Shown: positions 7,990 through 12,787, counted from the first letter of the stretch. The stretch: 64,000 nucleotides of DNA from a virus (IMGVR_UViG_3300031949_000001:1-64000), one strand, 5' to 3'. The notes: a model not told the origin generated them from the letters alone. Program-made: numbers and translations.

Positions 7990-8571
7990 CTAAACTAACC
8001 AGTCTAGGCGGGCAGCGGAGAAGGAAGGCGTTGCGACAGGCTTGCGGTAAGTGGTCGAGCCACCTATCGTGTGACCCGGCTTGAGGACGCCTTTACATTC
8101 CAGGCAATGGTAGTTTTTTCCACCTAACTGCATCTTCTTGTGGCGAATAGCCCCGACCATGATGACGCGACAATTGCACGAGTACGTATATTGAGTCGTC
8201 TGGCGTGCCTTGGCGTTGCTCACGTCATACTGATGACAGCGATCAGCAGGAAGCCCGAAGGCGCTCATGACGCGCTGCCATTCGTTACCGTGGGGCTTGA
8301 TTCGCTGAGTGGGGTGGAGAGCGTACGCGATCAGGTGCGCGACCTCATGCCCGATTGTCTGCTTGACGTAGTTATCGAAGTTCTCAGCGCAAAGCGTTTG
8401 ATTGACCAGAACGTAATTGTTCCGATAATCCGCTTTGCCGCCTATGGTACCCCGAAGGTCGAACTTGACGACAGGCATCGCGAAATCTTTGGAGTAACGA
8501 ATCCGCGCTTTTTGAACGTAAGCGACAACAGCCAACTGAACTGCTCTGATCTGATCTTGCGTTAGTTTCAT
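7990..8571 (-). CDS. SprT-like zinc metalloprotease
   Basis: HEVAH...PHGNEW zinc motif plus YxCxC...CxxC. Confidence 0.9.
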   Translation of the reverse strand: MKLTQDQIRAVQLAVVAYVQKARIRYSKDFAMPVVKFDLRGTIGGKADYRNNYVLVNQTLCAENFDNYVKQTIGHEVAHLIAYALHPTQRIKPHGNEWQRVMSAFGLPADRCHQYDVSNAKARQTTQYTYSCNCRVIMVGAIRHKKMQLGGKNYHCLECKGVLKPGHTIGGSTTYRKPVATPSFSAARLDWLV

Positions 8572-9511: not shown

Positions 9512-10102
9512 TTATCGAGTGTGTGTATTGTATTCTTTTATCTTACTCTCGTCAAGCTCACCGTCCTCAAATCTTGCACCAAATCCGCGTTTTTCTCGCC
9601 TCTCGTGCTCACTTTCGGACTTGTTAAATCGTGATCGAATTTCATCCGCTGATTCGACCTTTGATGGTCCTTCTTTTCGGGCGTCACCATAACCCTTGTT
9701 GATGATGGGCGGTCTCGTATAACCCTCCGTTGAGCCTTCGGGATTGTAAGGATTGACGGCTCGAATCTTCTCTCCGTGGTCTATCAGAAATTGGTTTTGA
9801 ATCTGATACGCGAGCTTTTCATTGTACTCACGTCCGAGTATGTCTTTCTGTCTTGGGCAATAGTTCTGCGTGAAATGGACAATCTCATGACACAATGCCG
9901 ACTGTCCAATTTTTGTTTTGAGGTCTATCCGATTATCTAGATAGATGTTGCCGTCAACACACGCGCCTAATACTGGTGATCCAATGATCTGTTTGAGTTC
10001 AGCAGCAGAGACGATTGAAACTACGGGCTTCCGGACTGAATCCATCGGCTCGATGCCGTATGAGTGCAGGAAGAGAAAACAGGCTGCGATTAGTTCGTCC
10101 AT
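9512..10102 (-). CDS. HExxH metallopeptidase-like protein (DUF6647-like)
   Basis: SALCHEIVHFTQ...EKLAYQIQ; related to 46819..47277. Confidence 0.65.
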   Translation of the reverse strand: MDELIAACFLFLHSYGIEPMDSVRKPVVSIVSAAELKQIIGSPVLGACVDGNIYLDNRIDLKTKIGQSALCHEIVHFTQNYCPRQKDILGREYNEKLAYQIQNQFLIDHGEKIRAVNPYNPEGSTEGYTRPPIINKGYGDARKEGPSKVESADEIRSRFNKSESEHERREKRGFGARFEDGELDESKIKEYNTHTR

Positions 10103-10144
10103 GCCCCGTACTCTACGCTAGTTTGGTACTAATTGCAATAGTGG

Positions 10145-10230
10145 TGGTGCTGGTGGTAGGATTCGAACCCACGAAGGCTTTCGCCGCTTGCTTACAAGGC
10201 AAGTCCCGTAGTCCACTTGGGTACACCAGC
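10145..10230 (-). tRNA. tRNA-Thr(UGU) with long variable arm
   Basis: GCTGGTG/CACCAGC-A-CCA; anticodon loop CTTGTAA; variable arm CGGCGAAAGCCTTC. Confidence 0.85.
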
Positions 10231-10235
10231 AAAGG

Positions 10236-10265
10236 AAAAACCTACCACCACCGAGAGCGGTAGGC
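10236..10265 (-). terminator. Intrinsic terminator after the large ncRNA
   Basis: CCTACC...GGTAGG followed by TTTTT on the minus strand. Confidence 0.65.
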
Positions 10266-10600
10266 TAAACCTATTTCAATGAAGTCTCGGTCCAGGACAC
10301 GGTCTTATCGTATCCGCGCTGCCACATACGTCCACTGTCATCGCTTCTACGGGTTTCCCCTCCACTGCCTTTCGGCGACAGTCCACTCGGATTCAAATCC
10401 ATTTCGCGCTTAAGCTGTGTGGTTCGGCTCAACGCTTACTATCCCCGGTAATAGAGGCTAACAATCTCGGGACCGCCTTAGTATTTCGGGTCATAACTCC
10501 CGTCTTACCTACGATCAGGCTTGACCGGTGGTTCAGTTCTGGTAAGCGATGCCCCAAAGGGACTTTCGTTTAGTTTCCGCTGTACAGCATTCTAAGGAAC
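10262..10600 (-). ncRNA. Candidate large structured ncRNA (~340 nt)
   Basis: ORF-free; many hairpins including GAAA tetraloops; 5'/3' closing helix; late-promoter-like AATAAATA upstream, terminator and tRNA downstream. Confidence 0.65.
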
Positions 10601-10642
10601 AGCGTCGCTCTTTACCGTCCATTGACCAGAGAAGTATTTATT

Positions 10643-10945
10643 CTACTGCATGTCAGTCATGTCGTCAAGCATTTGAGCGAAGGTCATAGCCGACTGCCGC
10701 CTTTTAATCGTTTTTTCAGTAACGACCGGAATGCTGGGACGCTTGTCAGAGTATTCGGCGTCCATCCAACAACTTTCGCACGGATAAGATTGACGCTTGA
10801 AACCGCGCCAAACGGGACAGTCATCATCACCATACTTACAACCGTGATTGATGCAACAGTGTTCAGAATGAACGCACCACTTCTCACCAACTGGCGCTAC
10901 GAATGGCGCCGTTGCTATGAGGTATGCGTTCCAGAGGGTTGTCAT
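10643..10945 (-). CDS. Cys-rich hypothetical protein
   Basis: HCCxxHGCKYGDDDCPV...CESC. Confidence 0.7.
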   Translation of the reverse strand: MTTLWNAYLIATAPFVAPVGEKWCVHSEHCCINHGCKYGDDDCPVWRGFKRQSYPCESCWMDAEYSDKRPSIPVVTEKTIKRRQSAMTFAQMLDDMTDMQ

Positions 10946-12051: not shown

Positions 12052-12582
12052 TTACTTGTTTTGTTTTTCGATGTCAAGCAGATGCCGAACCTTTTCGATT
12101 TCGACTGTGGTATGTGCGACACCACCAGCGTTAAGGTCGATGTACCACTGAAGCACTTCCGCCCGAGTCTTCAGATTGTTGACGTTCATCAGGAAATCAC
12201 AATGCGCCAACCGAAGCTTATCGGTGTACTCCTCACGCTTATGTCCGAACGCTGGAATCTCATTCCCTAGGAATCGTAGCACTGCCGAGATGCGTTGCTT
12301 CCCATCTACTAGTACCATTGGACCTTCAAAGGTTTGCATCCACCCCTTGCAGTTCCAATAGATCACGCGGCTCGACTTACCACCCTTCAGCATGAATTCG
12401 ACGTAACGGATTTGCTGCTCTTCCGACCAGACATGCCCACGCTGAAAATCGGGGTCCATCTCGAAGGTGTACATCCGCTCATCGCGATTGCTGGCAATCC
12501 AATTTTCGAGGTAATCCCAACCAACGTTAACTTCGTAGGAACCGGACCGCGTCATTTGTGGAATGTCAGCAAACTTAGGCAT
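12052..12582 (-). CDS. Stand-alone DUF262 (ParB/Srx-fold, GmrSD N-terminal-like) protein
   Basis: PDFQRGHVW and VDGKQR motifs. Confidence 0.85.
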   Translation of the reverse strand: MPKFADIPQMTRSGSYEVNVGWDYLENWIASNRDERMYTFEMDPDFQRGHVWSEEQQIRYVEFMLKGGKSSRVIYWNCKGWMQTFEGPMVLVDGKQRISAVLRFLGNEIPAFGHKREEYTDKLRLAHCDFLMNVNNLKTRAEVLQWYIDLNAGGVAHTTVEIEKVRHLLDIEKQNK

Positions 12583-12787
12583 TGGCGAGCCGCCCAGCGT
12601 CGAGTAGAACGGAACCGATGAGCCTATCCAGCCCATCGGCATCCGTTGCGTTATACTTTAGGACGTACATCCAATCGGACACGTCACGATACTGCTGCCC
12701 GTTGGACTCGTCATACTTCAGCGAGCAAAGCGCGTCAATGACGCCCTCTGCTTGCGCTTGTGTAAGATTGAGATTGAGTGTTACCAT
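12575..12787 (-). CDS. Hypothetical protein
   Basis: Coupled operon. Confidence 0.55.
   Translation of the reverse strand: MVTLNLNLTQAQAEGVIDALCSLKYDESNGQQYRDVSDWMYVLKYNATDADGLDRLIGSVLLDAGRLANA

Follow-up and report, generated by a model that had tools for sequence, protein, structure and literature searches.

The window analysed here is the 64,000-nucleotide (nt) stretch IMGVR_UViG_3300031949_000001:1-64000, the first 64 kilobases (kb) of a virus record of 378,912 base pairs (bp). Its minus strand carries, ahead of a gene for a threonine transfer RNA with the anticodon UGU, tRNA-Thr(UGU), an element which by sequence comparison is a new family of phage structured non-coding RNA; the general theme, a phage RNA adjoining a tRNA, is already established. 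The RNA is conserved with covarying base pairs, has a constant promoter and hairpin anatomy, keeps a fixed partnership with tRNA-Thr(UGU) and belongs to no known family. An earlier note on the window had pointed to an unannotated structured RNA by a tRNA which it could not place in a family, and this is upheld: the RNA is kept in five lineages with covariation and has no Rfam match. On the best explanation, to which we give an even chance, the element and tRNA-Thr would be transcribed together as a two-part precursor, from which RNase P would release the element as a stand-alone folded RNA, and its invariant single strands would bind a partner linked to tRNA-Thr(UGU) or to translation.

Conserved structure of the RNA

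Five lineages were compared, the window and the metagenome contigs L015, L016, L029 and L033. L029 is identical to L030-L032, and L021-L025 are near-identical copies of the window. The relatives were reached through the contigs of homologs of P0002, the protein encoded downstream of the tRNA, and through the contigs of the small open reading frame (ORF) upstream of the RNA in L015. Metagenome relatives of P0002 show 52-85% identity (85% protein identity in L015 and 63% in L016). The RNA core retains 65-94% identity across lineages, and the flanking protein falls to 63% amino-acid identity or is replaced. All five lineages share the order of promoter at the end of the upstream ORF, AAATA, RNA, 3′ hairpin and tRNA-Thr(UGU), the gap between hairpin and tRNA being about 6-10 nt in four of them and ~85 nt in L015. 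The conserved body of the RNA measures ~290-300 nt (window 10527-10239, minus strand). The features in the window are as follows.

10945-10643, minus: upstream ORF P0001, its end overlapping the promoter
10640-10668, minus: sigma-70-type promoter TTGACG-17-TAGAAT, 10 of 12 matches, over the last codons and stop of P0001
10631-10639, minus: start-site region AAATAC, with AAATA invariant in all lineages (alignment A1, columns 1-5); predicted start
10531-10633, minus: lineage-specific 5′ extension of ~105 nt with a boxA-like motif, CTAAAC, a GAAAGTCCC hairpin and CGCTTAC
10512-10527, minus: hairpin a (CGGUCA-AGCC-UGAUCG), where conservation begins; present in every lineage, with compensatory changes
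10480-10509, minus: hairpin b, two-tiered (outer GGUA...UACY, inner CGGG/CCCG), inner stem variable
10443-10472, minus: helix A (UCCCG...CGGGG with an inner GAG/CUC hairpin), opening the highly conserved core GGUCCCGAGA
10406-10435, minus: helix B, two-tiered, with the 11-nt loop CGAAYYAYACA (10416-10426) and compensatory changes
10382-10405, minus: linker GAAAUGGAUUUGAAUCCGAGUGGA, with GAUUUGA and CCGA invariant (A1, A2) and no supported pairing
10335-10381, minus: three-way junction of D1 (CUGUC/GACAG), D2 (GCC-GAAA-GGC) and D3 (GGG-GAAA-CCC), with covariation and length variation
10297-10334, minus: single strand UGGNCGYA followed by hairpin E (GCGCGG...CCGUGU), read by hand and left out of the counts
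10286-10291, minus: pseudoknot 5′ strand ACCGAG, pairing with the loop of the 3′ hairpin
10239-10266, minus: 3′ hairpin of 11 bp, terminator-like, whose loop CUCGGU (10250-10255) is the pseudoknot 3′ strand; U-run after it at 10231-10240
10145-10230, minus: tRNA-Thr(UGU) with a long variable arm and without its own promoter

The minus-strand stretch of ~400 nt at 10231-10639 contains no credible ORF. Stop codons occur in every frame of both strands, with two to three kinds of stop in each minus-strand frame, and in all related contigs the gene callers placed no gene in the homologous gap. The 40.7-kb contig of P0007 shows a corresponding gap of 605 nt. A protein-coding gene, including one with recoded stops, was ruled out, as all frames are stopped and frame-breaking indels of 10 and 31 nt lie within the conserved core. 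The G+C content is 0.51 at the RNA locus and 0.44 across the window. The earlier note had described an ORF-free structured part of about 340 nt; it is indeed ORF-free and structured, but the conserved RNA is the 3′ 290 nt and is not closed by the long-range helices that had been proposed.

Pairing was scored in an unfitted MAFFT alignment (A2) and in an alignment realigned to the covariance model (A3), against slid controls, in which the 3′ partner was moved by 1-3 columns, and against 500 shuffles. In A2, 84.7% of the cells of 46 pairs are paired (36-42% when slid), 10 pairs have changed on both sides (slid 3-6) and the covariation score is 0.216 (slid at most 0.117). The values for A3, which is fitted to the model and so biased towards structure, and in whose model the pseudoknot columns are unpaired, are 93.1% of cells over 39 pairs (slid 35-42%), 11 pairs changed on both sides (slid 0-4) and a score of 0.289 (slid at most 0.109). 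In both alignments none of the 500 shuffles reached the observed score. The homolog search gave four further lineages in which the pairs covary above slid controls, and on this comparison the element is a conserved structured RNA with compensatory pairs beyond the controls and length-variable stems between fixed flanks. Many conserved G·U pairs fit the minus strand only; because they would be A·C mismatches on the other strand, the RNA is assigned to the minus strand. A pairing of core bases 31-39 with the 3′ arm of the terminator, proposed by RNAalifold, was rejected, being mostly G·U and failing in L029 and L033.

The individual elements show how the fold has been kept. In hairpin a, UCA/UGA of the window is replaced by CUA/UAG in L016 and by UAA/UUA in L015, as read from the alignments. 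For the inner stem of hairpin b the window has CGGG/CCCG, L029 GGAG/CUCC and L033 CGGA/UCCG, and a different hairpin takes this place in L016 and L015. The outer five pairs of helix A are uninformative because they are invariant, and its inner stem shifts register in L029. Helix B shows compensatory changes from G-C to A-U in L015 and from A-U to C-G in L029, along with a U·G to C-G difference between near-identical variants of the window, and an invariant ACA adjoins the closing pair of its loop. The junction strands AGUGGAG and CGUAGAAGCGA are invariant around arms that vary: D1 reads CUGUC/GACAG in the window, GUGUC/GACAC in L016 and UUGCC/GGCAG in L029, and D2 reads GCC/GGC in the window against GUC-GAAA-GAC in L016 and L029. 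Inserts of 8 nt (window and L029), 18 nt (L033 and L015) and 39 nt (L016) occur in D3, and the hairpin ranges from 3 to ~15 pairs; the indels of 10 and 31 nt sit inside this stem-loop and its flanks are invariant. The GAAA-capped hairpins at 10367-10376 (GCC-GAAA-GGC) and 10351-10360 (GGG-GAAA-CCC), both foreseen in the earlier note, are accordingly retained through compensatory or length changes in the relatives. A further hairpin of that note, GGATACG/CGTGTCC, can form in the window and L016 but not in the other lineages; the version available to all five is RCRC:GUGU (GCGCGG:CCGTGT, 10319-10297). This is hairpin E, in which GUGU is kept on the 3′ side and faces GCGC in the window, L016 and L029 or ACAC in L033 and L015, giving G·U or A-U pairs respectively. 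It was not counted, as its alignment columns are out of register.

The 3′ end shows the most change in sequence with retention of pairing. The stem of the 3′ hairpin occurs in three unrelated sequences, CCUACC/GGUAGG, CCAAGCC/GGCUUGG and CCCUACGA/UCGUGGGG. The pseudoknot, with 97% of cells paired and two compensatory pairs, becomes CCGGG:CCCGG in L029 and GCCAG:CUGGU in L033 and L015, the latter pairing having lost one base on either side in concert.

The promoter was found independently, at the same place, in L015, L029 and L033, and its L016 version is TTGACG-17-TAAGCT, so that the form for the five lineages is TTGACG-17-TA(G/A)(A/G)(A/C)T. The -35 hexamer TTGACG is invariant in all five, though the upstream ORF of the window is a different gene. 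It lies (window 10663-10668, minus strand; also L015, L016, L029 and L033) within the terminal codons of upstream ORFs of two unrelated kinds, each ending Leu-Asp-(Asp/Glu)..., and the promoter constraint is apparently imprinted on the C-termini of the upstream proteins. A late-type promoter had been suggested for this site; the sigma-70 type fits better, the T4-late-like AATAAATA matching at only 6 of 8 positions in L016 and L029.

Between the promoter and hairpin a little is shared. The 5′ extension of the window is missing in L016, L029 and L015, and L033 shares only TTACCAGAACT and a hairpin with it; in L016 and L029 the first conserved hairpin begins ~12 nt past the -10 box. The boxA-like TGTTCCTTAGAA lies in this extension and is unsupported, and the three long-range pairs once proposed to close the RNA fall for the same reason, as their 5′ partners (CGCTTAC, CTAAAC and AAGTC) all belong to the extension. 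GTAAGCG, the supposed partner of the first, is part of the conserved local helix B. The extension also carries a 29-codon ATG frame (MDGKERRCSLECC..., window 10537-10626, minus strand) with no visible ribosome-binding site, which is unconserved in the other lineages. In L033 (3222-3345) a tandem duplication of ~62 bp over the -10 box and start region (TAGAATAAATACC...) gives a long A-rich 5′ extension.

A functionless structured spacer or leader, with hairpins kept for transcript stability or RNase processing, would agree with the small, clade-restricted family and with an unremarkable folding energy. It is nevertheless improbable, as a multi-helix junction and a pseudoknot exceed the needs of a stability hairpin, and long unpaired runs (GGUCCCGAGA, GAUUUGA, AGUGGAG and GAAGCGA) stay invariant in a core of this identity while the flanks diverge or are replaced.

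The 3′ hairpin and its tRNA-Thr(UGU) partner

Every one of the five lineages retains the 3′ hairpin with its pseudoknot. A U-run follows in three (window, L016 and L033), and hairpin and tail together qualify as a terminator in two, the window and L016. L033 has a 9-nt loop and then UUUUU, and L029 and L015 have the hairpin without a U-run, despite a fully conserved core (216-259 bits). The terminator reported in the earlier note, a hairpin with U-run at 10266-10239, is therefore real for the window, but a canonical terminator occurs in only two to three of the five lineages. Because hairpin and pseudoknot are universal and termination is not, the conserved role of the hairpin is taken to be structural, and the comparison favours a structural 3′ end of a stable RNA over a termination switch as the conserved function. 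The strong terminator of the window must limit its tRNA output.

The downstream tRNA-Thr named in the earlier note was identified as tRNA-Thr(UGU). No promoter-like site was found in the interval between RNA and tRNA in any of the five lineages. Because no promoter lies between them and the next gene has its own conserved site, the tRNA is presumably transcribed through the RNA. Two different tRNAs fill this place: the window and L015 have the long-arm tRNA-Thr(UGU), and L016, L029 and L033 have an ordinary tRNA-Thr(UGU) unrelated to it. The L015 core is 93.6% identical to that of L033, yet it precedes the window-type tRNA, with ~80 extra nt at the joint. Because the RNA tree does not follow the tRNA type, the tRNA slot appears to have been refilled by recombination, with the same anticodon each time. 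The partnership has thus outlasted the replacement of the tRNA by an unrelated one of the same anticodon, and such a fixed pairing with one anticodon is unusual.

L015 itself is a mosaic, its left part (ORF and RNA) being L033-like and its right part (tRNA and P0002 homolog) window-like. The ~80 extra nt at the joint (L015:5795-5876) hold another CCGAG-containing hairpin, and this segment is apparently a recombination scar between RNA and tRNA. L015 also has a tRNA-like match of 136 nt, 2.2 kb downstream. Duplexes predicted for the RNA with the tRNA, or with a nearby tRNA look-alike, did not exceed those of shuffles.

The arrangement of a promoter, a conserved 5′ domain, a more variable 3′ part with hairpin and U-run and then a promoter-less gene recalls a riboswitch- or T-box-like attenuator, in which the core would sense a small ligand, or tRNA-Thr(UGU) through the ACA of loop B, and gate termination before tRNA-Thr. 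We consider this possible but rather unlikely. The pseudoknot strand covaries with the terminator loop, like riboswitches whose pseudoknot touches the expression platform, but when transcripts truncated at the hairpin loop were folded, the pseudoknot helix appeared in one of the five lineages only, and no positionally conserved upstream segment pairs with either arm of the terminator in the five, so that no conserved antiterminator was found. The absence of a U-run in L029 and L015, whose core is fully conserved, also speaks against a switch. The invariant ACA, a Thr codon matching UGU, stands at the 3′ edge of the terminal 11-nt loop B with a purine next to it, and two different tRNA bodies with the same anticodon lie downstream; an ACA in a loop is, however, a weak test of coincidence, and no RNA column tracks the tRNA type in the five lineages. 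Neither a T-box match (Rfam, E <= 10) nor a conserved UGGN bulge was detected. UGGU occurs ahead of the core in four of the five lineages, and the window has CGGU.

The long-arm tRNA-Thr has a class-II-like variable arm (GGC-GAAA-GCC), and the same tRNA is present in five IMG/VR contigs (L007, L008, L009, L010 and L011), including complete phages of 343 kb and 461 kb. In the 343-kb phage (L009:1440-1550, plus strand) it is preceded by a hammerhead-like element with stem I ACGCA/UGCGU, the core CUGAUGAG-stem II-CGAAAC and a stem III of 9 bp with a large insert. The cut is predicted after GUA, 24 nt before the tRNA. The element has only a sub-threshold Rfam match to the type III hammerhead (18.8 bits, E = 0.14).

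By parallel with this element and with theta ribozymes, the RNA might be a self-cleaving or otherwise catalytic RNA which processes the RNA-tRNA precursor. The complex junction with invariant unpaired nucleotides and the pseudoknot would suit a ribozyme, as would the hammerhead-like core placed 24 nt upstream of the long-arm tRNA-Thr of L009; theta ribozymes adjoin phage tRNAs and were proposed to process phage tRNA trailers (PMC10879173). Nevertheless, no ribozyme family matched at E <= 10, the body of ~290 nt greatly exceeds the small self-cleavers in size, no position suggests itself as a cleavage site, and RNase P already accounts for the 5′ processing of the tRNA. We regard catalysis as very improbable.

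Known families and possible roles

The Rfam 15 collection of 4227 models includes GOLLD, ROOL, RNase P, transfer-messenger RNA (tmRNA), T-box, 6S and all riboswitch and ribozyme classes. A cmscan search against it gave tRNAs only at the gathering threshold, and tRNA only for window positions 10100-10750 at E <= 10. Scans of L015, L016, L032 (the copy of the L029 lineage) and L033 at E <= 5 showed no family besides tRNA. The cmscan against Rfam that the earlier note had put forward as a check thus bears out the absence of a family, with no match except tRNA in the window (E <= 10) or the relatives (E <= 5). T-box, tmRNA, GOLLD, ROOL and all other Rfam families were rejected as assignments, none matching in the five lineages, and ARAGORN found no tmRNA in the window or the relatives.

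Several partial resemblances were followed individually. In bacterial RNase P RNA the P4 helix is formed by CR-I (GAAAGUCCGG with a bulged U) and CR-V. The RNase P-like GAAAGTCC...GACTT of the window is a plain 5-bp AAGTC/GACTT pairing in the window-specific 5′ extension, with no bulged U; it is absent from L016, L029 and L015 and has no model match. A tmRNA tag frame was likewise rejected: only one short frame ends at a stop conserved in position, and its peptide end, ..AARIR*, ..AARMR* or ..AARGE*, is not tag-like. This frame differs in L033 and is open in L015, and its stop falls inside hairpin E. The hammerhead core has, for example, the form CUGANGA...GAAA around a three-way junction. Neither this nor another small self-cleaver core was recognised here by a model match; the junction strands are AGUGGAG and CGUAGAAGCGA, and the CUGAUCG of hairpin a is unconserved.

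The element is extremely unlikely to be a highly diverged form of one of the large known RNAs, namely GOLLD, ROOL, RNase P RNA or tmRNA (or the message-like half of tmRNA). GAAAGTCC...GACTT, recalling the P4 helix, favours it, but this pair lies in an unconserved extension and is without the bulged U. The short frame stopping in hairpin E encodes nothing like a tag peptide and stays open in L015, no model matches at E <= 10, ARAGORN reports no tmRNA, and size and domain order do not fit.

GOLLD (RF01998) and ROOL (RF03087) are pseudoknotted multi-domain RNAs of phages and prophages located near tRNA genes, with no function assigned, and a tRNA is sometimes covalently linked in their transcript (bioRxiv 10.1101/2024.12.08.627333). 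The tRNA-Thr-linked RNA is also phage-encoded, pseudoknotted, multi-domain and placed beside a tRNA, and in this theme the comparison drawn in the earlier note is apt. It does not extend to homology or size: there is no sequence or model similarity, the length is ~300 nt here against 500-800 nt or more, and the RNA is tied to a single tRNA (Thr-UGU), not to tRNA islands, and is known from five lineages only. Species 1 and 2 of the T4 tRNA cluster (rnaC and rnaD) are small stable RNAs co-transcribed with tRNAs and excised by tRNA-processing enzymes. No similarity to them was found (BLAST against 50,697 phage records, tRNA matches only), and they are simpler and ~120-140 nt long, whereas the present RNA has its own promoter and a single tRNA partner.

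With the T-box (RF00230) the RNA shares a leader of ~300 nt, a terminator hairpin and a candidate loop codon, ACA, which matches the tRNA anticodon and is followed by a purine. It differs in preceding a tRNA gene and not a synthetase or biosynthesis gene, in having the codon in a terminal loop, and in lacking the T-box sequence, the UGGN bulge, the Stem I platform and any model match. ZTP, fluoride and preQ1 riboswitches resemble it in that a conserved domain is joined by a pseudoknot to the intrinsic terminator region. In the present RNA, however, the pseudoknot uses the terminator loop and not the 5′ arm, so that the two structures need not exclude each other, and the U-run is not universal. 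The ribozymes that flank phage tRNAs (theta/HDV-like, PMC10879173; hammerheads) are also structured elements beside a tRNA gene, thought to shape the tRNA precursor, but they are 50-100-nt self-cleavers with known cores, none of which matched here.

On the preferred interpretation of a stand-alone RNA, a host-type (sigma-70) RNA polymerase would initiate at the conserved promoter overlapping the end of the upstream gene. The transcript would comprise two 5′ hairpins, helices A and B, the linker, the three-way junction with its GAAA-capped arm and variable arm, hairpin E and the 3′ hairpin locked by the pseudoknot. Polymerase not stopped at the 3′ hairpin would enter the tRNA-Thr(UGU) gene, and an RNase P cut at the 5′ end of the tRNA would separate the two, giving an RNA of ~300-400 nt which ends in the protected hairpin and a short tail. 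Where no terminator is present the same cut would supply the 3′ end of the RNA. In the window, L016 and L033 the hairpin and U-run may act as a leaky terminator setting the amount of tRNA made per RNA. Structured RNAs that combine junctions and pseudoknots with long invariant single strands prove in nearly all cases to bind something specific or to catalyse a reaction.

Several considerations weigh against this interpretation. Co-transcription, release by RNase P, stability, the nature of the partner, the transcription start and the 3′ end are features which we infer from the sequence. The hairpin and UUUUU of the window form a strong intrinsic terminator immediately ahead of a gene that lacks a promoter, an arrangement classically seen in regulatory leaders. 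The covariation statistics come from five lineages with few independent events. By predicted folding energy the RNA does not stand out from shuffled sequence (minimum free energy z = -0.49), and because this score gives no signal the evidence for structure is comparative. The family comprises five lineages of one narrow clade, and shared ancestry could account for the constant tRNA-Thr neighbour.

An aptamer-like core lies upstream of tRNA-Thr(UGU) in all five lineages. It may act as a sensor gating the tRNA gene, the core binding tRNA-Thr(UGU) through the ACA loop, or another threonine-decoding signal, and the pseudoknot setting the read-through; we think this doubtful, but if it is true, a tRNA would for the first time be known to be under the control of a riboswitch or T-box-like element. 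The locus lies in an early region with a tRNA-Thr look-alike, and such a tRNA-gating sensor might help the phage to counter a host attack on tRNA-Thr. An RNA which senses or handles tRNA-Thr(UGU) would represent a new phage mechanism for tRNA supply and a new RNA-tRNA recognition module. If it instead stands alone, the RNA is a compact addition to the unexplained tRNA-associated phage RNAs (GOLLD, ROOL and T4 species 1 and 2). New classes of structured RNA are seldom found nowadays, and large phages have been little explored as a source of them.

Distribution and neighbouring genes

A covariance model search showed a single copy in the 379-kb phage genome, which excludes paralogs within the same genome, and found no further member in five other large phage records. 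Scans of IMG/VR with four DNA patterns and two protein-guided scans gave no members beyond the five lineages, and a scan with the upstream ORF P0001 gave only loci without the RNA. The metagenome scan returned the known lineages and two chance matches only. When 185,579 species genomes were scanned twice, 0 matches were obtained the first time and 21 chance matches the second. The BLAST matches in the 50,697 phage records were to the tRNA only.

The neighbourhood of the RNA is composed of small early-type genes, including those for a SprT-like protein and a protein with a GmrSD N-terminal domain (window 7990-8571 and 12052-12642, minus strand), and the relatives carry the same small early-type gene set around the RNA. 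The downstream protein P0002 has 196 amino acids and an HExxH motif and belongs to no Pfam family. Ahead of its gene a site TTGCAA-17-TAGAGT (window 10103-10136, minus strand) ends 8 nt before the ATG. This promoter-like site, in the form TTGCAA-17-TAnAGT, recurs in six lineages, also in those with another upstream neighbour, which suggests that the P0002 gene is served by a promoter of its own and that its mRNA has little or no leader.

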